Origin: Felis catus
Taxonomy: Eukaryota
Direction: 5' to 3'
Assembly (NCBI RefSeq): GCF_018350175.1
Contig: NC_058368.1
Span: 56,422,001-56,486,000, forward strand
Length of the DNA: 64,000 nucleotides
The notes beneath the pieces are model-generated. The model was not told where the DNA came from and ran no database searches. It worked only from the letters and a program-made list of their open reading frames with translations. Positions 14,584 through 52,694 of the stretch are shown here, one piece after another. The position numbers were made by a program, and so were the translations under genes. Position 1 is the first letter of the stretch, and the number at the start of each line of letters is the position of its first letter.

Positions 14584-16225
14584 TATTTTTTTAATGAAAC
14601 ACGGCCAATTTTATTCAAATTTCCCCAAATTTATGCTCAATATGTTGTTTCTACAATGTATGCCACCCTTTATATAATGGTTTTATTATTTTGTCTTTAT
14701 TTTATAGGTTTTTTTCATCTTATCTTTATACAGTTCTTCAGTAGAAGTCAGAGTCCTCAGTTGCCCAGTTAGAAGCCTCTGACCTACTTTTCTTTTTTTC
14801 TTTTTTTTTTTTTAACGTTTATTTATTTTTGGGACAGAGAGAGACAGAGCATGAACAGGGGAGGGGCAGAGAGAGAGGGAGACACAGAATCGGAAACAGG
14901 CTCCCGGCTCCGAGCCATCAGCCCAGAGCCCGACGCGGGGCTCGAACTCACGGACCGCGAGATCGTGACCTGGCTGAAGTCGGATGCTTAACCGACTGCG
15001 CCACCCAGGCGCCCCGGTTTTTGGTCTTTTTAATCACTTGCTGATAGCGTGAAGCTGCATGCTTACCTATAACCACGTGACCTAATTTAGACTCAGTCTT
15101 GGCAGCCAGTCTTGCATTTCTCATCACATTGACAATCCACCTTTCATGTTCAGTTTGTCTGCCAACATGTGAGTGCAGATACACAGGTGAATGCAACAAA
15201 AAGTCTCAAATATGAAGAGTCAATGATTTTCAGCGAAATCCTTAAGCTACCTAGAAGTCATTCACAAGTACTGATTCACATTCCCTCAGTATGTGGAATT
15301 TTCTGAGCTCCATCAAAGTCCAAGTTAACATAAAAGCATTCAAGAAATTCTGTAACTGGGTCTTTATATGTGTAAGACTGTGTTCAATAACTTTAACCAG
15401 ATCTTTTAGCAGCTGCTGGCATTTTTGAACATCTTTGTTCGTTATGATGGCTGTAGCCTAATAGCGAGGAATATGTGGGCATATCATCTAAATTGCATTA
15501 AGATATGATGGCTGGCAAAAGAAGAGATCAATAATGTTATCATGCCCCTTGATTAGTTGAAGAAAACAGAGGACAGTGGATGAACCTTGTTTGCTGCTGA
15601 AGATACCGAAGTGGAAAACTCAGAATTATTACCTATGGTCTCTTTTAACCATGTAAGGTCTTCCATTGCTGCATCCCTGCTCTGAATTAAGATTTCAGAG
15701 GCCGGTTTTCCCCTGAGTGAACTCAAAACATTTCTGGCTGTTGCTGGAACCAACATTCTAAAGAAGTAAAGATATTCTGGTGCTCCAGAGTAATTCCCAT
15801 ATTCATATTGGATTTTACATAACTCTAGAGTATATCTAAATATTCCTACCTAAAACCATGCCTGCCCACCAGGTACTTAAACAGCATCTGCCCATCTCTG
15901 GTTGACTGCATCTGCCTTGTAGTTTCTGGATCTTCAAATGTCTTCACAATTGGTTCCATTTCTGCCTGAAGCTATTTCAGTCATGCAACAACTGTGGTTC
16001 TTTTTTCTCTCGAAGCATGCAGAATATCACCAGAATAAAGGTTTTTGTACATATTGGTAGCAAAGTGTATCATGTTGATATCACTAAAAAGATACAAATT
16101 CCCTTGTAATTTTTTTTTCATTATACATCTCTTATGGAGAGAAACTCAACAGAAAAATTAGATGTCAATCCAAAAATGTGTGTGATGTGAATAGTCAAGA
16201 TGTACTCCACCATCTTGCCAAGGAA
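14584..16225 (-). pseudogene. EIF3E: EIF3E (eIF3 subunit e / INT6) processed pseudogene
   Basis: Intronless minus-strand match across the whole protein: ATG at 16213 (MVEY..), [96 protein letters not shown] (stop 14738-14740). Has 3'UTR, AATAAA (~14609-14614) and an A tail. Disabled by many stops and frameshifts and a SINE insertion. Confidence 0.95.
14788..15015 (-). mobile_element. Young feline-type Can-SINE inserted in the EIF3E pseudogene
   Basis: GGGGCGCCTGGGTGGCGCAGTCGGTTAAGC head, CpGs largely intact, near-identical to the copy at 17790-18021. Confidence 0.97.
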
Positions 16226-22894: not shown

Positions 22895-23390
22895 TATTAA
22901 TATTTAGGTCTAGAAGCAAAGAAGAGTGGTGAGGGTAGGTCCTGAAGGAAATCTGCAGGCACCTACCTTAGGGGAGGCCATTACGAGTTCTTCAGGTAGA
23001 AGAGGGTTAACGGATTCATACTGGGCTGGAGGAGCAGCTTCTACCAGCAAAGGAGACTCAGCAGAATTTAGAAGTTCAGAGTCCCCAGGTTCATCAGGAT
23101 CTGCCAATGTCCTTATTCCAGCTTTCAGAATCTCATTCTTTCCTAATCAATGCCCTTGATCTAACAGATGATACCCTGCATGGTTGGGGTTTCAAATTAG
23201 GTTGTAATTCAGTCACTTGTATGATGAGACTTTGGATTTGGTTTTCAGAAACCTCAGCTCTGGGGCTCCAGGGGATAAAGGCTTCCTTCAGATATAAAAA
23301 ATTTTAGGTCATATTTGCTGAGCTTGAACTGAGAATTTAAAACCCTGAGTTCATTTTTTTCTTTTCTAATGTATTCCAGCCCAATTATCA
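22895..23390 (-). mobile_element. ERVL internal fragment (gag region)
   Basis: Minus-strand translation resembles HERVL/ERVL gag: LKEAFI..RAEVSENQIQSLIIQVTELQ..VRSRALI..DPDEPGDSELLNS..VNPLLPEELVMASP; frameshifted. Confidence 0.85.
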
Positions 23391-25657: not shown

Positions 25658-25810
25658 CTGTCATGCAGTGTTCTCCAAGGAGAGAATCAGAACTGGTAGG
25701 ATGTGTGTACATACATCTAATATAGATGGACTTAATTATATATATCTTTCATGTTGTATGCATTTAATGTATATTTTAATATATATTATGTATATTTTTA
25801 AGAAATATCT
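25658..25810. mobile_element. Possible MLT2 (ERVL) LTR end with AT/TA-rich expansion
   Basis: 'cagtgttctccaaggagagaatcagaactggtaggatgtgtgtacata' resembles the MLT2 terminal motif followed by its usual TA-rich tract. Confidence 0.5.
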
Positions 25811-26250
25811 TAACGGATGACCGGCACAAGCGGGTGGACAAGCCAGAAGGTAGGGACCGCGCAGCTGAAACTGCGCTCAGTCAGCTGGAACCACCACGAA
25901 ACCTACGCAAGCCACGCAAGCTACGCCACCTATGGAGGTCGTTGGTAGGTGGGCCCTGCGCTGGCGCATGTGCGTCGTGAACAGCCTGAACCACGCCGGC
26001 AGCCGCAGTGGGGATGTCAAGGACGCCTGGCCTGCTAGTCACCACGGTCGTTCCCAGAGCCACTCTGGACCCGCTCGCCTGTGCCTGTGCCAGATTCTGA
26101 GAGTGAGGAGAGCCAGGAGCCCAGGTGCGTTGACCTGACCCAGGCGGCAGGCTGGACGGGTGTAACATTCAGAAGGGGAGGGTGGGAAGTGACCCAGCAT
26201 TGGGAGTCACCGTGCTTTGTAGCCAGTTCACCCCGTTCTGTAACCGCTTT
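25811..26250. promoter_or_regulatory. Isolated CpG island (candidate promoter)
   Basis: 29 CpGs counted by hand in ~440 bp of GC-rich sequence within AT-rich flanks; GCGCATGTGCG NRF1-like motif. Confidence 0.55.
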
Positions 26251-29728: not shown

Positions 29729-29924
29729 GCATATAAGATTTTTAAAAAATGCTTATTTACATGACAGGAATTTTAAACTCATTTAGGTACCAAATATGTA
29801 ATGATAATCTTTAAATTGTTCTTGAAATCTTTACAGCTACATGACTTTAGAATAATATTTTAATTGATAAATTTTTCTGTATACTGTCAAAAATTTGCTA
29901 AGATATCATTACTTAAAAAAAGTT

Positions 29925-32250
29925 CTGTTGTGGTATAGTTGATATACCAAAAACTATACATATTTAATGTATCTAGCTTAATGAGCTTGTTACATGCATA
30001 CATCCTTGAGACAATCGTTATAATAAAGGTAATAAATATATCCATTGCCTCTCAATGTTTTCTTATGCCCTTTGTGTATCTGTGTGTACTACAAACACTT
30101 ACTGTGAGATCTATCCTCTTAACAGAATTTTTCAGTGCACGATGCAATATTGTTAGCTATATATAGCCACTGAGTTTTACATAGATTTTCAGAACTTATC
30201 CATTTGTATAACTAAAACTTTATATCCATTGAGCAGCAGCTCCATTGCCCTCTGCCCCCACCCCCTGGAAGCCACTATTCTACTCTCTATGAGTTTGACT
30301 ACTTTAGATAACTCATTTAAGTGGAATTATGTAGCATTTTCTCCTCTTTTTGTGACTAGCTTACTTCACTTAGCATAATGTCCTCTAGATTCATCTATGT
30401 TGCCAAAAATGGCAGGATTTCCTTCTTTTTTCAAGGCTGAATACTATTCCATTGTTTATACCACATTTTCTTTATCCATGCATTTATCAGTGGATGCTAA
30501 GATTGTTTCCTAATTTTGATATTGTGAATAATACTGTAGTTAACATGACAGTGCAGATATCTTCAAAATCCTGATTTTATTTCATTTAGATACATACTCA
30601 GAAGTGGGAGTGCTGGATCATTTGGTAGTTCTATTTTTAATTTTTGGAGGAACCCCCATACTGTTTTTCATAGCAGCTGCACCCATTTACATTCCTGACA
30701 ACAGTGAATAAGAGTTCCAGTTTCTCCACATCCTAGTCAACATTGTTTATCTTTTGTCTTTTGGATAATAGCGCGACTGACAGATGTGAGGTGATATCTC
30801 ATTGTGGTTCTGATTTACATTTCCCTGTTGACTGATGCTGAGCATCTTTTCGTACTCCTGTCAGCTATTTGGCCACTTGTTTGCCTTTGGTGAAATATCT
30901 GTTCAGGTCTTTGCCCATTTTTCTATTTGTTTTTTATTTTGTTATTTGTCTTTGATATTGAGTTGTCTAAGTTGCTTATATATTTTAGATATTAATACCC
31001 TGTCAGATGTATGGTTTGCAGATACTGTCTTCAATTCCATAGGATGCCTTTTTATTTTGTTGTCTCCTTTGTGGTACAGAGCTTTTTATTTTGCTGTAGT
31101 TTTACTTGTCTGTTTTTGCTTTCATTGCCTATGCTTTTTTCAGGAACTGGGGAGTGTCTGTGTTGTGAATGGATGTCTTGGTCTTTGGATTCCCCACGAG
31201 AAGATTCAGGTGGGGTATCTGTGCTCAGAATAAAGACAGCCAGAAGGAAAGTAGTAAGCACGAAACACTTTATTAAAGCAAAAGTACAATCTCAAGGTGG
31301 GAGAGCAGGCAGGTTCCCCACGGTGGAACCAGACCCAAGGTTGTCTTGGGATTGGATATTATTGGTTCTCTCTGGGCTGGTAGGAGCTATGCTGGGCTTC
31401 TAGTGTGTAGCTTTTTTTTTTTTTTCTTCCATCACTGTCCTTGCCTCCACCTTCTGTCTCATTCCCATTCAAGGACTTGAGACTCTGCCTGCAGTGTTCC
31501 TTCCACTGTTCACATCCAGCTTCTACCTAACACTTTGGTGTCAGATCTAAGAAATGATTGCCAAGACTAATGTCAAGATTTTCTCTTATGTTTCCTTTTA
31601 AGAGTTTTATAGTTTCAGATCTTACATGGTAGTCTTTATATTGATTGATTTCTGTTTATGGTGTAAATAAGGGTCTGATTTCATTTTTGTGTGTGTGAAT
31701 GTCCAGTTTTCCCAAGAATATTGGTTGAAGAAACTGTGTTTTTAACCACTGTGTATTTTTGGCAGCCTTGTCAAAGGTCAGGTGACTGCATATGTATTGG
31801 TTATTGCTGGACTCTCTATTCTGTTCCATTGATGTACATATTTATCTATGCCAGTACCACACTTTTTAAAATTACTGTAGTTTTGTAATATATTTTGAAA
31901 TCAGGGAATATGATGCCTCCAGCTTTGTTTTTGTCAAGATTTCATTGGCTACTTGGGGTCTTTTGTGATTCCATATCAATTTTAGGACTGTCTTTGAAAA
32001 ATGCCATTGAGATTTTGATAGGCATTTGATAGCATTGACTCTAATAGATTGCCTTGGGTAATATGGACATTATAATAATATTAAGTCTGCCAATCCAAAA
32101 ATACAGGATGTCTTTCCATTTATTATGTCTCTTTAAGTTTTTTGTTTGTTTTTGTTTGTTTGTTTATTGGTGCTTTGTACTTCCAAGTTTAGAGGTTTTT
32201 TCAACTCCTTGGTTACTCCTTGGTTAAGGTTACCCAAGTATCTTATTCTT
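29925..32250 (-). mobile_element. L1 (L1MA/MB-like), ORF2 3' portion plus 3'UTR; sense arm of an inverted L1
   Basis: Starts at the ORF2 (K)RIRYLG motif (~32250) and runs to a 3' end at ~29925; typical L1 3'UTR; interrupted by a solo LTR. Confidence 0.9.
31138..31532 (-). mobile_element. Solo ERV LTR (ERV1-like) inserted in L1
   Basis: ~395 bp non-L1 insert starting TGTTAGG on the minus strand, internal AATAAA, 4-bp TSD cttt (31134-37 / 31533-36); L1 resumes seamlessly. Confidence 0.75.
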
Positions 32251-33040
32251 TTTTATTTTTCCTGACAACCAGTGCTTTATTAGTGAGGAGCCTTGGTTTG
32301 AGGAGTGGGGAGCTAGGATGGACAAGAAGCGCCCATCTTAAGGAATTTTCCTGGACATCAGGCATTCCTCCATGCATATTTCAAGTAAACACATTCATGG
32401 ATGAAATCCTCAGAGGGGAGAGCGCTGTGACTGAAAGCAGCAGGGATGGAGGGGCTCCCTAAGCACAGCTGAGTCTGTGGGACAGCAGAACTTCTCCAAG
32501 TTCTAGGTGACATCATTACATCACACTGGAAACCAGGTGATGAACTTGGGGCTGGTCATGAGCGGTGGCATCATTACTGGGGGCCGGAAGAGCCTCCTGC
32601 AGGAAGTTGAAGAGGGGGTGCCCTTGTGCACCACTCCCCTTGCACTTCTCAGAAAGCATGAATTTGGGCTCGAACCTGTTCTGAGGTCTGAGGAACTTGA
32701 AGGAATTCTGGATCTCTTCCTTCCTGGCATTTCCTGATGCCAGCACCGCTTGCATGGGAAGCAAATATTGACCAGGCCCCTGGCAGAGGTGCTGCTGATG
32801 CTTGTTCTGGGCATAGTCCTGGATAGTTGTACCTTGGAGCGACACCGCATTTTTGGTCAGCAGCATGTTGGCCCCCAGGAACCCAGGCTCACAGGCTCCT
32901 CCCTGGCCAGCAGGCCCTTGGGAAAGGCATTCCTGGAGCGCTGGGGGCTGCAACTGCCGGTTGGTGGCAGGGAGTGCAGCTGCACACATGGCCCGGCTGT
33001 GGGACCAGAGTGCACAGCTCTTTTGGTGCTCTTTTAAACG
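32250..33040 (-). pseudogene. GPX1: GPX1 (glutathione peroxidase 1) processed pseudogene
   Basis: ATG at 32989 (MCAA..), LLTKNAVSLQGTTIQDY, NARKEEIQNSFKFLRP..FEPKFMLSEKC..HPLFNFLQEALPAPSNDATA, MTSPKFITWFPV, ..SCA* (32459-61). No intron; 3'UTR with SECIS core, AATAAA (32276-81) and A-rich tail; frameshifted. Confidence 0.93.
32345..32408 (-). other. Degenerate SECIS element of the GPX1 retrocopy 3'UTR
   Basis: Minus strand ttcatccATGAatgtgtttacttgAAAtatgcatggaggaatgccTGATgtccaggaaaa gives the ATGA...AAA...TGAN arrangement at the expected 3'UTR position. Confidence 0.75.
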
Positions 33041-33041
33041 G

Positions 33042-33950
33042 GATCCTGAACAGACCAATAGTGAGTAAGGAGATTGGATTTGGAATCAAATACCTGCAAC
33101 AAAGGAAATCCCAACACCAAAAGGCAATCCCAACACCAAAAGGCTTCACTGGTGATTTCTACCAATCTTTAAAGAAATAATAACAATACTGGTCAAACTA
33201 TTCCAAAAATCTGAAGAGGAAGGGCTACTGTCAAACTGATTTTATGATGCCAGCATTACCTTGAAACCTAAGCTTGAAAAAGACACTACAAGAAAAGAAA
33301 ACTATAGGCCAGTGCCCAAAATGAACAGACACGTAAAAATCCTTAGTAAAATATTGACAAACCATATTCCGCAGTACATTAGAAAGATCATATACCATGA
33401 CCAAGTGGACTTATTCCTGGGAGGCAGGGATGGTTCAATATGTGCAAATAAATTAATATGATACACCACATTAACAGAAGTAATAAAATCATATGATCAT
33501 TTCAGTAGATGCTGAAAAACACATTTGAGAAAATTCATCCTTTCATGATAAAAAAAAAAACTGTTAACAAATTACGTGAAGGAATTTACCTCCACATATG
33601 ACAATCTCCTAGCTAACAGCATATTCAGCCGTGAAAACTGAAGTCTTTTCCTTTGAGATCCAGAGTTACATGGATGCACACTTTTACCACTTCTATTCAA
33701 CATAGTAATGGAGGTACTAGCTAGAACAGTAAGCAAGAAAAAGAAAGAAATGCACCGAAATTGGAAAGGAAGAAATAAATTTATCTCTGTTTGCATAGGG
33801 CATGGTTTTATACGTAGAAAACCCAAAAGACTCTACAGAACAGCTGTTAGTACTAATAACTGAAGCCACTAAAGTTGCAGGATACTAAAACCAACATGCC
33901 AAAATCTATTGTGTTTCCATAACGATAGGGTAACTGAAAAGGAAATTAAG
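33042..33950 (+). mobile_element. L1 ORF2 (RT region); inverted arm of the same L1
   Basis: [60 protein letters not shown]. Confidence 0.92.
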
Positions 33951-34895
33951 AGATCATTTAAAAATATCACATTAATACTGAGAAATCAATTGCCCATTAA
34001 ACTGAATTGTTATAAAGGTACTTAAGAATACATTGTTAATAGTTGCTAATCAGTGTTGTGCTAGGCAATTTTTGCTATGATTGCCTGACACTGTAGCAGA
34101 ATGGTACTGCTTTCAGGCCACAGAATCATGAACAAGAAATAAATCGTACAACTGAGTGAATCACACTAATCATCGTATATAATTAGACATACTTCTTATA
34201 GTTAAGTGTTATTTTTTCCAGTTCAATCTGTGTCCTTAGCCTGTGGTTCCCTGGTAGGTTTCTTATACATGGTGTCAGTCATCCGGCAGTGCTTTGTGAT
34301 TTATATGTCATTGGATTTAATTCATCAATATTAGCTATATAAGTTTGAAATAAAACTGTAATAGAATAAAGAAATAAAACTGTAAATAATGTTGAAATAA
34401 AACTATAATAGACTAAGGAAAGAGCCTTTAGAAACTTATATTTACAACTCTGTATTCTAATAAGTCAAAAAATTTAAATATCAAATTATATTCAAAATAT
34501 TCAACTGGAGAAGAGATAAGAAACGAGTGGTTTAATAGTCACCAGAAATATAACTTTTTGTTATTAATTGTAGAGTGGTATTTCCTGTTCTGGATATAAA
34601 TTGAATCAACATAAATTGTAGCATTTTTCATAAATATGTTAATAAACAGATATTTGCTGAACATGAATCAGTAAAATGAGGTCTGAGTAAAGGGATATGG
34701 AATTTCCATATATTTGGGATAACTTAAATTAAGAAATATGAAGTTAAAAAATAAAAGTTAAAGTTAAATATTGCTGAGATATCCTTCAGATGTTACTTTA
34801 GCTTTGTACCAGTTAGTTTTAAAATTATAACATTAAATATGTTTCTCAAGTCTGCTATGAGTCTCCTACTCTTTCTCCTTCCTACTCCTTGGGGC

Positions 34896-41179: not shown

Positions 41180-41705
41180 TTTTTTTTAAAAAAATATATA
41201 TATTTGACATCTTACAGGGTTAAAGCGTGTTGATCTGATACATTTATATATTGCAGTATGATTGCTATTATAGTGTTGGCACCTCTATCAGGTCACATAA
41301 TTATTCTGTTTTGTGATGGGAATAATTAAGATCAAGTCTCTTAGCAAGTTTATAATGTTTATAATGCAATATTGTTACCTATAATCACTCTACTGTGTGT
41401 TAGATCTGCAGGACTTACTTATCTACAAGTAGCAAGTAATATACCCTTGGCATCTCTCCTATTCTTCCACCTCCCAGCCTCTGGTAACCACTATTGTATT
41501 CTCTATTTTTATGAGTTTTTTTGTTTGTTTGATTTTAGTTTTTAGTTTAGTTCATTTCTTTTTTCACATATAAGTGATACCATGCGGTATTTGACTTTCT
41601 GTGTCTGAATTATCTCATTTAATCTAATACCCTCAAGGTCCAACTATGTTGTCACAAATGGCATAATGTCATTTCTCATGGCTGAAAAATATTGTACGTG
41701 TGTGT

Positions 41706-43789: not shown

Positions 43790-45838
43790 GCTTTTCTGTG
43801 ATGGCTAGAATTAGTTATATACAAATCACATTCCATTTCCTGAATGGTGCGGTGAGGAGGTCTGTGGAATCACTTCTCAGTAGAATAAACTCAACTGAAG
43901 AAACTAATATGAAAAAATTAAAATCTCTGGAAATTATTCTAAGCACATAAAGCAAATAAACAAACACTTATTCAGGAAAATCTAACTGTCATGGAGAAAA
44001 AGGAAATACCACAGGACCTGAGCTGTGGTCTGGTCTTTGCCTTCATGCTGAACCCCTGTTAAAGGCTGTAAAATCTCCCCAGAAGTAGGGAGCATTTCCC
44101 ATCCCCACCTGCTCCTTGTTGCTTCAGCCAAATCCCAGGAAAAGTGAAGAGGGCTCCTTCTTCAACTTGCCCCAATGCAAAAGCCTGCCACTGTACACCA
44201 GGGGAGGAAAAATGACAAGACTTCTTTAATTGCCCTCACTCCAGCTCATTCGTAGGATGGGTGTACCACAACAGGGGGTGTCAAGCTGAGAACAGAAGAG
44301 GCTATTAACACAGAGGACATTGGGTATGTTCAGTCCTGTGTCCACTGAGAAGCAACATCAGAGGATTTCCAAGACAGAGGAAACAGATAACACAGAAATA
44401 GTCCAGCCAATTCAGTAAACAAATGAACAGGCAAACAAGAGCAAAACTGTGAGCCCCAGAGGTGCCTTAAAGGAAGTATTAAAAGGAACTTTTCCCATCC
44501 CAGGTATGCTATTATAAGAGAAGCAGTCATGTATCCCTAACTCCGTCGCTAGAGCAGTGGCTCAAAAATTTTCCCCAGTGAAAGATTTAAGCCATTAGAA
44601 CAGAGAACACCAAAGTTCTCCCCTCCAAAAAACTGACTTTATTTTGAACAGAGTATGGGGTTTCAGCCTAGAATCTCTTAAAAACAAGAGAAATGTTAAT
44701 GGTGAGCAATTAAGGAAGGTTGATATCTTCATGAGAATATTCTTTAGATCAGTTTAATTTACCAAAAATATCAAAGTAAAGAGAGCTAAGACGATCCTTC
44801 CTGGCGTGAGGAAAAAAAACTGTCAAAGAAAGCTTCAAAAACAGTTTCTGCAAAGAAGCCCAAGTGGAGTTGGATCAAACTGTGTAATAATTTATGCTCT
44901 AAATTATTATCAAAAACAATAGAACAGTCAGCCAGCAGTTAGTGGAGCCTAACAGCAGAGTGTGATGCCAACACAGGCAGACAGCCTAACAGAGATTAGG
45001 GAATGAGACTTTCAAATAAAGCTCAGTTAAAACCATTATCAACACAGAGGACATTGGGTATGTTCAGGCGTGTGTCCACTGAGAAGCAACATCAGAAGCT
45101 TTGCAAGACAGAGGAAACAGATGCAACAAAAATAGTCCAGCCAATTCACCAAACAAATGAACAAGCAAACAATAGCAAACTTAGTGAGCTCCAGAGGTCC
45201 CTTAAAGTGCATATTAAAAGAAACTTTTCAGGCTGAAGAAATAAACACAGAGGGAAATTCAAATCCATACCAAACAGTGAACACCAGCAAAAGTAATTAT
45301 GTAATTTAAAATAAAATGTAATATGCATAATGTTTCTTTTTCCCTCTTCTACCTTATTTAAAAAGCAATTATGTGCAGCATTGTGTATATGATTATATTT
45401 TGGGATGTACAATATGTAGAAATATATTTGTCAACAGTAGCACGAAGGACATAGGTGGGTGCAAAACTGTATTGGAATGAGGAAGTGATACCAGATGGTA
45501 ACTCAAATCCACAGAAACAAAGGAAAAGAATAAAAAGTGATACATAAGCAGGTTAATATAATAAACTATAAATAAGACCCAGTTCTCAATTTTTATGTAT
45601 GTTTTTGTAAACAACCTACAATTATATAAAATAATAGCTGTTACGGTATATGGCACACATATACAACTATCTGAATAGAAATTACACTTTGAATGAATAA
45701 AACAATCTAATTAAAGGCAGATATTCAGACTGAATACATCCAACTACAAGATCCAACTACAGGCTCTCCACAGGACATGCACTTTAAATTCAAATGTACA
45801 ATTAGGTTTAAAGTGACAATATATAAATACATATCATG
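43790..45838 (+). mobile_element. Old L1 5'/inter-ORF region leading into the ORF2 start (continues at 52273-52330)
   Basis: 'aacaatctaattaaaggcagatattcagactgaat..cacaggacatgcactttaaattcaaa..aggtttaaagtg..atatcatg' then 'caaac..aagaaagccggagtggctatactaatatcagataa' after the nested inserts. Confidence 0.6.
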
Positions 45839-46276: not shown

Positions 46277-47653
46277 TCTTCCAATATTTTATCTAAAGTT
46301 AGGTAACATAGTAGTGTAGTATTGGTTTCAGGAGCAGAATTTAGTGTTTCATCAATTATATACGATACTCAGTGCTCAACACAAGTGCCTTCTTTAATAC
46401 CCATCACCCATTTAGCCCATCCCCTGCCCAGCTCCCCACCAACAACCTTAGTTTATTTTCTCTAGCTAAAAGTCACTTATGGTTTGCCTCCCTGTTTTTA
46501 TCTTATTTTATTTTTACCTCCCTTTGCTTCCCTATGTTCATATATTTTGTTTCTTAAATTCCACCTATGAGTGAAATCATATGGTTTTTGTCTTTCTCTG
46601 ACTTATTTCACTTAGCATAATACACTCTAGTTCCATTCACATCATTGCAAATGGCAAGATTTCATTCTTTTTGATTGCCAAGCAGTATAATATATACCAA
46701 TTCTACTCTACCCATTCATCAGTCAATGGAAATTTGTGCTCTTTCCATATCTTTGGCTATTGTGGACAGTGCTGCTATAAATATCGGGTTTCATGTACCC
46801 CTTCTAATCAGTATTTTTGTATCCTTTGGGTGAATAGCTAGTAGTGCAATTTCTGGGTCATAGGGTAGCTTTATATTTAACTTTCTGAGTGATTTCCACA
46901 CTATTTTCCAGAGTGGCTGCATCAGTTTGCGTTACCACTGACAGTGTAAGAGGGTTCTCCTTTCTTCGCATCCTTGCCAACATTTGTGGTTTCCTGAGAT
47001 GTCAGGTGGTACTCATTGTGGTTTTGATTTGTATTTTCCTGAAGATGAATGATGTTGAGCATTTATTCATGTGTCGGTTGGCCATCTGGATGTCTTCTTT
47101 GGAGAAGTGTCTATTCATGTCTTCTGCCCATTTCTTCACTGGATTATATATTTTTGGGGTGTTGAGTTTGTAAGTTCTTTATAGATTTTGGATACTAGCC
47201 CTTTATCCTATATGTCATTTGCAAATATCCTCTCCCATCCTGTTGATTGTCTTTTAGTTTTGTTTCCTTCACTGTGCAGAATCTTTTTATCTTGATGAAG
47301 TCCCAGTCGTTCATGTTTGCTTTTGTTTCCTTTGCCTCCAGAGACGTGTCTTGTAAAAAGTTGCTACATCTGAGGTCAAAGAGGTTGCTGTCTGTATTTT
47401 TCTCTAGGATTTTGATGGTTTCCTGTCTCACATTTAGGTCTTTCATCCATTTTGAATTTATTTTTGTGGTGTAAGAAAGTGGTCCAGTTTCATTCTTGTA
47501 TGCATGCTGTCCAGTTTTCCCAACACCATTTGTTGAAGAGACTGTCTTTTTTTCCATTGGATATTCTCTCCTTCTTTGTCAAAGATTAGTTGGCCATATG
47601 TTTGTGGGTCCATTTCTGGGTTCTCTATTCTGTTCCATTGATCTGAGTACCTG

Positions 47654-47752
47654 GTGTTTTTTTTTGTTTTTGTTTTTGTTTTTGTTTTTTTTGTTTTTGT
47701 TTTGTTTTGTTTTGTTTTGTTTTGTTTTTGTTTTTTTGTTTTTTTGTTTTTT
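47654..47752. repeat. (TTTTTG)/(TTTTG)n simple repeat inside L1
   Basis: Direct read. Confidence 0.9.
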
Positions 47753-48707
47753 GCCAGTACCACACTGTCTTAATGATTATAGCTTTGTAATACAGCTTGA
47801 AGTGTGGAATTGTGATGCGTCCTGCTTTGTTTTTCTTTTCCAACATTACTTTAGCTATTCAGGGTCTTTTCTGGTTCTATCGCTGTGAAAAATGATGGAG
47901 GTATTTTGATAGGAATTGCATTGAATGTGTAGGTTGCTTTGGGTAGTATAGAATGTTTAACAGTATTTGTTCTTCCAATCTATGAGTATAGAATGTTTTT
48001 TTTCCCATTTCTTTGTGTATTATTCAATTTATTTTATAAGTTTTCTATAATTTGCAGAGTATAGATCTATTACCACTTTGGCTAGGTTTTTTCCCTAGTG
48101 TCTTAGGTTTTTGATGCAATTATAAATGGGACCGGTTTCTTAATTTTTCTTCCTGCTGCTTCATTATTGGTGTATAGAAATGCAACATATTTCTGTACAT
48201 TGATTTTATATCCCGCAACTTTGCTGAACTCAGGTATTAGTTCTAGCAATTTTTTGGTGGAGTCTTTTGGGTTTTCCACATAGACTATCATGTTGCCTGC
48301 AAAGAGTGAAAGTTTTACTTCTTCCTTGACAATTGGATGCCTTTTATTTATTTTTGTTGTCTACTCAGGCTAGGACTTCTAGTACTAAGTTGAACAACAG
48401 TGGTGAAAGTGGACACTCCTGTTGTGTTCTTTACCTTTTCTCCCTAGCTTTCTCCATTGAGGATGATAATAGCTGTGGTTCTTTCCTATATAGTCTTTAT
48501 GATGTTGAGTATGTTCCTTCTATCTCTACTTTCTTGAGGGTTTTTATCAAGAATGGATTCTGTATTTTGTCAGATGTTTTTTCTGAATATATTGAGAGGG
48601 TCATATTGTTCTTTTATTAATGTGGTGTATCATGTTTATTGATTTGTGGATCTTAAACCACCCTGCAGCCAAGGAATAAATCCCACTTGATAATGGTGAA
48701 TAATTCT

Positions 48708-48921
48708 TCGAAAAATTTTATGTTTTTTTTTGTTTTGTTTTTGTTTTTGTTTTTGAGAGCTAGAGCATGAGTGGGGTAGGAGAAGAGAGAGAGGGAGACA
48801 GAGAATTCCAAGCAGGCTCTGCATGGACAGCAGAGAGCCCAGTGTGGGGCTTGAACTCACAAACTGGAAGATCATGACCTGAGCTGAAGTCAGATGCTTA
48901 AGTGAGCCACCCACATGCCCC
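48708..48921 (-). mobile_element. Can-SINE nested in L1
   Basis: TSD gtgaataattctt. Confidence 0.95.
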
Positions 48922-50339
48922 AGTGAATAATTCTTTTAATGTACTGTTGGATTTGATTTGCTAGTATTTTGTTGAGAATTTTTGAATCTGTGTTCATCAC
49001 GAATAGTTTTAGTGGAGTCTGGTTTTGGAATCAAGGTAATGCTGGGCTCATAGGATGAGTTTGGAAATCTTCCTTCCATTTTTTTTTAACTGTTTCGAAA
49101 TAACAGGTATTAATTCTTCTTTATATGTTTACCTGATTTACCCTGAGAACCCATTCAGCCCTGGGCTCTTGTTTGTTGGGAGATTTTTTTTTTTATTGCT
49201 AATCCACTTTCTTTACTGGTTATGGGCCTGTTCAAATTTTCTGTTTCTTCCTGTTTCAGTTTTGGTAGTTTATATGTTTCTAGGAATTTATCCATTTCTT
49301 CCTGATTGCCAAATTTGTTGGCATATAATTGCTCACAGTATTCTCTTAAAATTGTTTGTATTTCTTTGGTGTTGGTTGAGATGTCTCCTTTTTGATTTGT
49401 GATTTTATTCATTTGGGTACTTTCCTTTCCTTTTTCTCTGAGGTAAGTTTGGCTAGGGGGTTATCCATTTTGTTAATTCTTTCAAAGAACTTGCTCCATT
49501 TCATTGAACTCCTAGTTTTTTTAAATTTCAATATCATTGAATTCTGCTCTCATCTTTATTATTTCCCTCCTTCTTCTGGTTTTGGATTGCAATTGTTCTT
49601 TTTCCAGCTCCTCTTGGTGTAAGTTTAGGTTGTATATTTGAGACTTTTCTTCCTTCTTGAAGAAGTCCTGTATTGCTCTATACTTCCTTCTTATGACCAC
49701 CTTTGCTGTATCCTAAAGGTTTTGAACTGTCATGTTTTCATTTTCATTGGCTTCCATGTACTTTTTTTTTATTTCTTCTTTAATTTCCTGGTTAACCCAT
49801 TAATTATTTAGTAGGATGTTCTTCAAACTCCAAGTATTTGTGATCTTTTCATATTTTTTCTTGTGGTTGATTTCAAGTTTCATAGTGTTGTGTTCTGAAA
49901 ATATTCATGATATGATCTCAGTCTTTTTGTATTGATTGAGGACTGATTTGTGACCCAGTATGTGATCTATTCTCTAGAATGTTCCATGTACACTTGAAAA
50001 TAATGTGTATTCTGCTGCTTTAGGGTAAAGTGTGGTGAATATATCTGTTAAGTCCATCTGGTTCAGTGTATCATTCAAAGCCATCATTTTCTTGTTGACC
50101 TTCTGCTTAGGTGATCTGTCTGTTGTTGTAAGTGGGCTGTTAAAATCCCCTGCTATTATTGTATTATGATCAATGAGTTTCTTTAGGTTTGCTGTTAAAT
50201 GATTTATATACTTGGCTGTTCTCAAGTTGGAGGCATAATTATTTACAATTATTAGGTTTTCTTGTTGGATAGACCCCTTTATTATGATATAATGCCCTTC
50301 TTCATCTCTCATCTCTTTGGTTTAAATCTAGTTTTTCTT

Positions 50340-50603
50340 GGGGCGCCTGAGTGGCTCAGTCGGTTAAGCATTCGGCTTTGGCTCAGGTCATGATCTCATG
50401 GTTCATGAGTTCAAGCCCTGCATTGGGTGAGCTTGAGCCCCACTTTGGGTGAGCTCAAGCCCTTCTTCAGGTAAACCCTGCTTCTCTCTCTTACCTTCTC
50501 TCTCTCATTCTCTCTCTGCACCCCCCCCACCATGGGATTCTCTCTCTGTCTCTGCCCATTGCTCACTTGTGCCCTCTCTCTCTCCCTCAAAAAAAAAAAA
50601 AAA
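50340..50603 (+). mobile_element. Can-SINE variant with triplicated internal module, nested in L1
   Basis: SINE head, three ~22-bp tgag.t..agccc.. modules, CT tract, A tail. Confidence 0.9.
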
Positions 50604-52694
50604 ATCCGGTTTGTCTGATATAAGAATGGCTACTTCCACTTTCTTTTGACATCCATTAGCATGATAAATGGTTTTCCTCCCCCTCCATTTCAATCTGGAG
50701 GTGTCTTTGGGTCTCAAATGAATCTCTTATAAGTAGCATGTCAATGAATTTTGGTGTTTGTTTGTTGGTTTGTTTGTATCCATTCCTATACCTTGTGTCT
50801 TTTGATGGCAGAATTTAGTCCATTTACATTCAGAATAATTATTGAAGGATATGAATTTAGTGCCATTGTATTACCTATAAAGTCAGTGTTCCTAAAGATT
50901 GTCTCTGTTCCTTTCTAGTCTTTGTTACTTTTGGTCTCTCTTTCCCATTCAAAGGCTCCCCTTTAATAATTCTTGCAGAAGAATTGTTCATGAACTTCTT
51001 TAGTTTTTGCTTGTCTTGAAAACTCTTTATCTTTCCTTCTATTCTGAATGACAGCCTTGCTGGATAAAGTATTTTTGGTTGCATATTTTTTCCATTTAGC
51101 ATGTTGAATATATCATGCCACTTCGGGCCTGCCAATTTTTTGTGGACAGGTCTGCTACTAACCTTATGTGTCTACCCTTGTAGGTTAAGGACATTTTGTC
51201 CCTAGCTGCTTTCAGAAGTCTCTCTTTATGTTTGTATTTTGCAAGTTTTATTATGATATATCTTGGTTTTGACTTGTTTTTGTTGATTTTTAGGAGAGTC
51301 TCTGTGCCTTCTGGACTGGAATGAATGCCTGTTTCCTTCCCTAGATTAGGGAAGTTCTCAGCTATAATTTGTTCAAATAAACCTTCTATCCCTTTTTCCC
51401 ATTCTTCTTCTGAGACGCCCATGGTATGGATATTATTGAACTTTATAGAATTGCTGAGGTCCTAAGTCTATATTCACGATCTAATAGTTTTCTTTCCCTA
51501 TCATTTTCAGCTTCATTATTTTCCATAATTTTATTTTTTTATGCCACCTATTCAGTCCTCTGATTCTTCCATCCTCATTGTGATTATAACCCTGTAGGTT
51601 TTGTGTCTCAGTTATAATATTTTTTATTTTGGTCTGACTAGTTTTTAGGTCTCATATCTCTACAGCAATGCTTTCTCTGATGTTTTCTATACTTTTTTCA
51701 GGTCCAGATAGTATTCTTATGACTGTTGTTCTAAATTCTTGTTCAGATATATTACTTATATCTGTTTTGAACAAATCTTTGAGTGTAGTTTCTTCTTGAT
51801 CTTTCTTTGGGGGAGAATTTCTCCATCTTGTTATCTTGTCTAGGTTTCTGTCTTTTGTGTGTTATGAAAGCTTGTTATGTTTTCTGCTCCTGAGAGTAAT
51901 GCTATATTAAGAAGGGGTTGTACACTCTCCACAGCCTGGTGCTTCAGGAAGTATATCTGGTGTATGCTGTATGCACTCTGCTGTTGTGATTTGGCTGCTC
52001 TTTCCCCTAGGTCAGTCCTCTGCAGAGTTTCTCTCTGCTTGCTGTGGGGAGTGCTTGGACCTTTAACTAGGTGTTCTTTGATTTGTTTGTTAAAAATAAG
52101 CCTGACAGTTATTTTCCTCAAATTATACAGGTTGTTCTCTTAATCCTCAGACTGATTTCCTAGGTGTTCAGAATGATTTGATGTTGATCTAGCTGTGTTT
52201 GAGGGATGAAACGAGGCCAGGGTCCTCCCTGCCATCTTAACTCCCTGGAAATTTTATTTTTTAAGGTTAACATATGCAAACAGAAACCATAAGAAAGCCG
52301 GAGTGGCTATACTAATATCAGATAATATTGACAATCTCTTTACAAAGCGTTTGCTTTTAAAAATTAAGTATGAGACAATATATTGCATTGGAACAAATAT
52401 TATAGCAAAAGTCTCTGTGGAACAATTTAAAATTTAACCCTTAAACTACAGAGGCATTAAGTATTTTTAATTCACCATAGATCATAATTTAGTCTCCTTC
52501 TTTCTTCTTTCTCCCTTCTGCCTTAAACTTTCATGCTTACACTATACATGTATTTTTCATATATCTGAAAGTCAAAATTCCAAATATCAGTTTTATAGAA
52601 TATACGTATTTTATTATAGTACATAAAGACTTTTTAACATCTTCATGTCTTCATGAATTCTATACATTTGGATACCAAATATATATTTAAATAC

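Follow-up and report, generated by a model that had tools for sequence, protein, structure and literature searches.

Here, we analyzed a stretch of 64,000 nucleotides from Felis catus (RefSeq assembly GCF_018350175.1, contig NC_058368.1, positions 56,422,001 to 56,486,000 of the forward strand), hereafter the window, whose own numbering is used for all coordinates. The window consists of mammalian DNA that is AT-rich and dense in repeats. Near its center, a long interspersed element 1 (L1) with an inverted 5' part carries an intronless copy of GPX1. A preliminary description had placed a copy of the whole GPX1 mRNA exactly at the inversion junction of this L1 and proposed that both arrived in a single event. 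In our analysis, the GPX1 copy lies instead inside the sense arm of the L1, 26 bases from the inversion junction and flanked by a short duplication of its own, and we regard a separate, L1-driven insertion of the retrocopy into a still young, twin-primed L1 as its probable origin. The stretch was present in 20 of 24 listed sequencing runs (0.98–1.00 of sampled words) from seven studies with a single organism label, and an assembly artefact is therefore unlikely as the origin of the L1/GPX1 structure; 14 of these 20 runs were marked as possible sources.

The inverted L1 element

The L1 is divided into two arms of opposite orientation, an arrangement known from 5'-inverted or twin-primed insertions as reportedly described by Ostertag and Kazazian in 2001. 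The inverted arm (33045..33951, plus strand) covers part of the reverse transcriptase region of open reading frame 2 (ORF2) and aligned with residues 70 to ~376 of P0050 (tblastn and alignment). The sense arm, on the minus strand, opens with 26 nucleotides (33019..33044) reading IPFKRAPK, whose 3' end forms the 5' copy of the duplication flanking GPX1. Beyond the GPX1 copy, it continues with ORF2 from (K)RIRYLG on (31533..32252, P0043 residues 121–357) and with the C-terminal part of ORF2 (30330..31137; tblastn to P0043 384–622, E 1e-45, and 357–625 in a later alignment), followed by the 3' untranslated region (UTR) and a 3' end from which a clear poly(A) is gone (29915..30329). Similar 3' ends of old L1s occur elsewhere in the window; in a self-comparison, 30107–30448 was similar to 41329–41693. 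The end also resembles the L1MA9/10 group.

The true inversion junction lies between 33045 and 33044, where the two arms abut within about two codons: the inverted part corresponds to P0050 residues 70–376 and the sense part resumes at 378–387, or at positions 48138 vs 48131 of the local reference L1. This neighbouring whole L1 of 6.4 kb in the window was the sole usable DNA reference; the identities of the two arms to it are 72.6% vs 74.4%. Their decay is likewise alike (28/229 mismatches in the inverted vs 50/356 in the sense arm, Fisher p 0.62).

A degenerate repeat brackets the whole unit, as noted before (29899–29919 vs 33947–33964), with modest statistical support: its alignment score was equalled in 62 of 20,000 random pairs and, with one side fixed, in 36/2,111 and 8/2,111. 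We delimited a putative 3' copy of 16 nucleotides (29899..29914, minus strand) and a putative 5' copy (33947..33959, minus strand), which share 11 of 12 core bases with a 3-nucleotide indel beside the core. A T run (TT/AAAT) stands before the 5' copy, whose overlap with the L1 amounts to at least 5 nucleotides. Where the inverted arm has its outer end, the first five bases of this copy on the plus strand belong to the L1 as well, and TAAGA is common to both copies and to the local L1 at the corresponding place. Microhomology at the 5' junction was reported for 577 of 605 inverted L1s (PMC2912911; this and all further papers cited here were accessible in part, and statements resting on them refer to those parts). 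Given that the outer repeat overlaps the L1 where the inverted arm ends on its outer side and that the arms meet within about two codons, an origin of the L1 by twin priming is supported at the sequence level. The geometry given in the preliminary description was confirmed, with an inverted ORF2 arm on the plus strand (33045–33951 in our analysis), a sense L1 on the minus strand (from 32252 to ~29915) and near-abutting ORF2 coordinates. The outer 5' repeat was also considered as mere further L1, into which alignments run weakly with several gaps; we judged this less likely than a duplication.

The sense arm is further interrupted by a solo long terminal repeat (LTR)-like insert of ~395 nucleotides with a TG start and a decayed CA end (31138..31532, minus strand), which is flanked by a 4-nucleotide duplication AAAG (31536–31533 and 31137–31134) and had gone unmentioned in the preliminary description. 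ORF2 of the L1 resumes across this insert, with P0043 residue 357 on both sides, and the insert is later than the L1. Small tandem duplications are found inside the L1 arms at 33100–33145 (~21 nucleotides) and 32206–32228 (~11 nucleotides), along with an A/C microsatellite near 32140–32165.

The GPX1 copy and its position in the sense arm

The GPX1 copy is located on the minus strand and begins with a GC-rich leader of 29 nucleotides (32990..33018), presumed from its position to be the 5' UTR. It is followed by an intronless coding copy with seven indels and a CpG observed/expected ratio of 0.19 (32459..32989; protein and DNA alignment), a 3' UTR with an AATAAA signal at 32281–32276 (32261..32458) and a decayed poly(A) tail (32253..32260). 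The top PDB match was human GPX1 (E 4e-26, vs 2.8e-13 for GPX2), and GHQ and EN are contiguous at a place where P0211, P0219 and P0127 retain intron sequence. The copy is thus readily recognized as a processed pseudogene on these sequence features, in line with the preliminary description. That the whole mRNA had been copied was not borne out: the copy aligns to residues 1–171 of felid GPX1 and, past a gap, solely to the final ones (LSHRLSCA-stop vs LLSQGPSCA-stop), with ~29 C-terminal codons lost. The position of the selenocysteine codon reads CAA (32836–32834). In the 3' UTR, a decayed hairpin near 32415–32340 (z -2.0, with 9 of 200 shuffles folding equally well) is SECIS-like (selenocysteine insertion sequence), a label given from its position alone; an Rfam scan of the sequence returned no SECIS, its sole match being one to mir-6130 within the L1, below threshold.

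From the GPX1 ATG, a frame of 157 codons (32519–32989, minus strand) is kept open by compensating frameshifts. It combines, as a mosaic, GPX1 stretches that are in frame with others that are out of frame and reads the selenocysteine position as Gln or Arg, and a frame of this length stayed open in 266 of 20,000 simulated sequences. Counterparts 94–96% identical are open too in Lynx pardinus and Panthera pardus, where they are annotated as GPX or GPX1-like, in a look-up that can show intact frames only. These counterparts indicate that the locus is older than the felid radiation, and only that. The residue differences to them (9 and 6 in 157) presumably reflect neutral change, given the felid divergence that we assume.

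According to the preliminary description, the GPX1 copy adjoined the inversion junction directly and the ORF2 codons between EKEIK and RIRYLG had been deleted. Both statements have to be revised, as these codons are present in sense on the 5' side of GPX1. Here, 26 nucleotides (33044–33019) of sense L1 ORF2 separate the inverted arm from the GPX1 copy, and 33044–33021 encode IPFKRAPK, the counterpart of residues 757–764 in human ORF2p. In 98 ORF2p contexts, the majority residues at the spacer columns are I-P-F-T-I-A-(T/P/S)-K, with P in 23/98. When scored with a nucleotide profile of these 98 contexts, the first 24 bases of the spacer rank first of 127,952 24-mers from the window. The best match of the spacer in the local L1 is 48131–48109, within the gap between the arms, and 5 of 20,000 shuffles matched as well; among 18,278 28-mers of the window, 14 match the local L1 to this degree, eight of them being that L1 itself and one the spacer. 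In tblastn, the spacer was placed at P0050 378–387, right after the 70–376 of the inverted arm, by a hit that is non-significant alone (E 4.2). Since the spacer is sense L1 ORF2, the inversion junction falls between 33045 and 33044, and we place the GPX1 copy inside the sense arm, 26 bases away from it.

Two comparisons remained uninformative. Two further L1 DNAs (L081 and L083, see below) read TPFSIVTNNIKYLG at the spacer spot, while the best match of the spacer in them lies elsewhere, which gives no support either way; when the two GPX1 flanks were concatenated, the alignment went to an A-rich microsatellite. DNA of the parent GPX1 was absent from the metagenome loci (80 kept of 471; protein identity ≤64%), and a literature search listed no title on the carnivoran GPX1 5' end. 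The 19 blastn matches to the GPX1 copy are 57–70% identical and confined to the coding part.

The GPX1 copy is flanked by AAAAGA on both sides (minus strand), with the 5' copy at 33024–33019 and the 3' copy at 32252–32247, or 7 nucleotides if 32253 is included. The duplication thus comprises 6–7 nucleotides with no extension beyond, which is shorter than usual for retrocopies. The preliminary description had denied GPX1 a duplication of its own and had named such a duplication beforehand as refuting its one-event model; one was found. A longer, decayed inner duplication of 21 nucleotides was considered and rejected: six more bases match in register, but seven consecutive mismatches lie between. 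At the insertion site, the strand bearing the GPX1 tail shows a pyrimidine and, directly after it, a run of A. Altogether, the L1 is colinear across GPX1 with 6–7 nucleotides repeated. A colinear host with a short repeat is the usual signature of a nested target-primed insertion.

Relative age and origin of the composite unit

The ages of the GPX1 copy and the L1 were compared by counting mismatches at those codon positions that conserved residues of the reference proteins leave no freedom to vary; possible CpG sites and sites within three columns of a gap were omitted in both passes of the count. GPX1 showed 20/150 mismatches, and the sense arm parts 18/156 and 32/200, giving 78/585 for the pooled L1 together with the inverted arm; these L1 values contain some lineage difference. 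A pass with stricter columns yielded 22/148 for GPX1 vs 15/123 for the L1, with a further value of 7/133. A younger L1 in the window scores lower in the same count (11/146 and 35/363), and the method therefore separates ages. By this measure, the GPX1 copy appears to be about as old as its host L1. The similar divergence predicted by the one-event model was indeed observed, a result in favor of that model, but equal decay would be expected just as well from two events separated by some millions of years.

In the reading that we favor, the L1 would have been inserted by twin priming, an established mechanism in which one nick is primed at the L1 3' end. The other target end would have annealed inside ORF2 via at least five matching bases, and ~0.9 kb would have been copied toward the 5' end. 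As an outcome, the inverted arm would have been joined to a sense arm opening at ATC-CCG, which is the geometry observed. Not much later on an evolutionary scale, ORF2p may have nicked the A-rich sequence C/AAAAGA, 20 nucleotides into the sense arm, where a spliced and polyadenylated GPX1 mRNA would have been reverse-transcribed in an independent event, leaving the duplication of 6–7 nucleotides. The LTR insertion and ~13% neutral decay would have followed. In favor of this reading, we count the L1 identity of the spacer, the colinear L1 with its short repeat, the A run at the insertion site, the second nested insertion (the LTR-like one) in the same sense arm and the similar decay of the two arms. 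All likelihoods that we attach to readings of the origin are judgement and were not computed.

Several observations weigh against a separate insertion. No younger age of GPX1 relative to the L1 was measurable (ratio 1.0, 95% interval 0.59–1.63), and the original target site was probably TTTT/GA or TTTT/GG, which falls short of the ideal TTTT/AA. Duplications of up to 9 bp are rare for mRNA retrocopies (PMC2912911). Moreover, just two of the 53 YAAAA sites in the L1 (2,873 nucleotides) lie within 30 nucleotides of the junction, so that the proximity of the copy represents a coincidence of ~4%. Genome-wide, such a coincidence is presumably unremarkable, because there are many inverted L1s and many retrocopies; this locus was, moreover, selected for its closeness. 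Inverted L1s account for 30.9% of recent insertions (PMC2912911).

The main rival is a single episode with a double template switch, in which reverse transcription passes from the L1 onto GPX1 and then resumes on the L1 RNA that it had left; this is the only form in which a one-event origin survives, and we consider it unlikely. Here, reverse transcription would stall ~26 nucleotides before the internal primer, and the T-run cDNA would anneal to the poly(A) of GPX1; after copying of the mRNA, the enzyme would return to the remaining L1 RNA, recopy 6–7 nucleotides and stop at the internal primer. In a variant of this scheme, a second particle bearing GPX1 attacks the unfinished L1 intermediate. 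Such a course accounts jointly for the proximity of GPX1 to the junction, for the shortness of the duplication and for the equal ages, and its departure point is an A run, from which a cDNA with a T end would result. Both double switches and additional pieces of cDNA at inversion junctions have been documented (PMC2104539, PMC11702581). However, the GPX1 5' end offers no L1 homology that could guide the return, and a nick-defined duplication explains the repeat in fewer steps. Tripartite cases reported in the accessible parts of these papers join three different RNAs or pieces of one mRNA, with no return to the same L1 RNA at the point of departure, and the prior rate of double switches would be far below that of nested retrocopies. 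A single switch at the internal primer, as the preliminary description had it, would join GPX1 directly to the inverted arm and shares with the double switch the explanation of equal ages, but the reverse transcriptase evidently reached the primer on L1 RNA, 26 nucleotides past the GPX1 5' end. It would require the spacer to be GPX1 upstream DNA with a chance likeness to L1, whereas the spacer reproduces precisely those codons that the L1 otherwise lacks, correctly ordered and decayed to the degree expected (1/127,952; 5/20,000); this explanation we find scarcely credible. Mammalian GPX1 presumably has a TATA-like element upstream.

Two further explanations were considered. A source L1 elsewhere could already have contained GPX1 in its ORF2, and the composite transcript, reading through the GPX1 poly(A) signal, could have been re-inserted here in trans; twin priming would then have had its internal primer positioned a short way upstream of GPX1. 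This scenario fits how the parts are ordered, as well as the inner repeat and the equal levels of decay, yet it is quite improbable in our view, as it needs both coincidences of the separate insertion in addition to read-through of the sense AATAAA (32281–32276) and mobilization of an L1 with a disrupted ORF2. A second copy of such a composite was not seen, although no whole genome was available for this search. Alternatively, the 5' part of a truncated L1 already holding GPX1 could have been turned by a later chromosomal micro-inversion. This would be in keeping with an outer duplication that is degenerate and modestly significant and with an inner junction that lacks clear microhomology; one breakpoint would nevertheless have to coincide with the boundary of the L1 insertion, and the outer repeat is direct and overlaps the L1 at the outer end of the arm, as twin priming predicts, which makes such an inversion very improbable.

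By its testable features, the L1 is a twin-primed insertion. Like other such L1s (PMC2912911, PMC11702581), the element combines near-abutting inverted 5' and sense 3' arms with a putative outer duplication of 13–16 nucleotides and microhomology at the 5' junction; it differs in that its sense arm is interrupted by GPX1 20–26 nucleotides from the junction and by the LTR. The GPX1 copy, in turn, shares with L1-mobilized mRNA retrocopies nested in older repeats (PMC2912911) the loss of the intron, the poly(A) signal and tail, the A-rich site, a putative flanking duplication and the CpG decay. It differs from them in a duplication of 6–7 nucleotides vs a peak at 14–16 nucleotides and in a host L1 of about the same age. 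Template-switch chimeras of the U6/L1, mRNA/L1 and tripartite types (PMC4476161, PMC13174262, PMC2104539) resemble the locus in carrying a cellular RNA copy in sense, 5' of the L1 3' part, and in a putative single outer duplication around the unit. In the accessible accounts of these chimeras, the captured RNA, placed at the 5' end or the internal junction, lacks a flanking duplication, whereas here the L1 is colinear on both sides with 6–7 nucleotides repeated. The GPX1 copy departs from a junction chimera in two defining respects: it is not joined directly to the inverted arm, and it has a duplication of its own.

Background for a single event does exist: two-RNA and tripartite de novo insertions and extra cDNA at inversion junctions (PMC11702581), tripartite chimeras (PMC2104539) and chimeras of small nuclear RNA or mRNA with L1 (PMC4476161, PMC13174262) have been reported. 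As a criterion for a single-event chimera, both parts should arrive together across species (PMC13174262). Individual chimeras are listed in the supplements of PMC2104539 and PMC13174262, and a similar case might be among them. Our search of the literature listed no title that deals with the present locus or with a switch back onto the original L1 RNA, a weak negative given that most subscription papers were outside its reach.

The structure is real, but most likely an ordinary pile-up in which a twin-primed L1 received a GPX1 retrocopy and, later, an LTR, and the composite unit is most likely inert. A separate insertion matters little in itself, as it adds one more old retrocopy in an old L1 to ordinary genome debris. 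It also calls for caution, since a decayed L1 remnant only tens of bases long can pass for a 5' UTR and give a nested insertion the look of a one-event chimera. If, on the other hand, the double switch were true, the 6–7 recopied nucleotides would now mimic a target-site duplication, and some retrocopies near inversion junctions with short duplications would be out-and-back template switches. Germ-line ORF2p would then be capable of departing from its own RNA and coming back to it, and a genome-wide excess of short-duplication retrocopies 20–30 nucleotides downstream of inversion junctions would be predicted.

Other elements in the window

A second processed pseudogene is probably represented by a decayed EIF3E copy at ~15200–16000 (minus strand), in which introns are not apparent in the sequence (PDB match, E 9e-27, for 15556–15849). 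A decayed coding-like stretch at ~22900–23300 (minus strand) is possibly a retroviral gag-type remnant as judged by eye; two plus-strand frames tested there had no match in Pfam. A short GC-rich island at ~25810–26180 has kept many CpGs amid AT-rich DNA, and two of its frames had no Pfam match either.

Outside the window, a plasmid search gave distant group II intron-type reverse transcriptase matches only, among the matches listed (20 of 60). The sequences L081 (1–1178), from a bacterial genome assembly, and L083 (1131–3521), from a viral contig collection, are mammalian L1 ORF2 DNA, which we take to be of rodent type and which is probably host contamination.

A long, younger L1 at ~46285–52000 (minus strand), which served as the local reference, has ORF1 (PF02994) and endonuclease remnants and is broken by short interspersed elements near 48.7–48.95 kb and 50.3–50.6 kb. 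A direct repeat of ~190 nucleotides (44303–44494 and 45037–45229; 87.6% identity, 734 nucleotides apart) may stem from a local duplication or from the 5' region of an L1.

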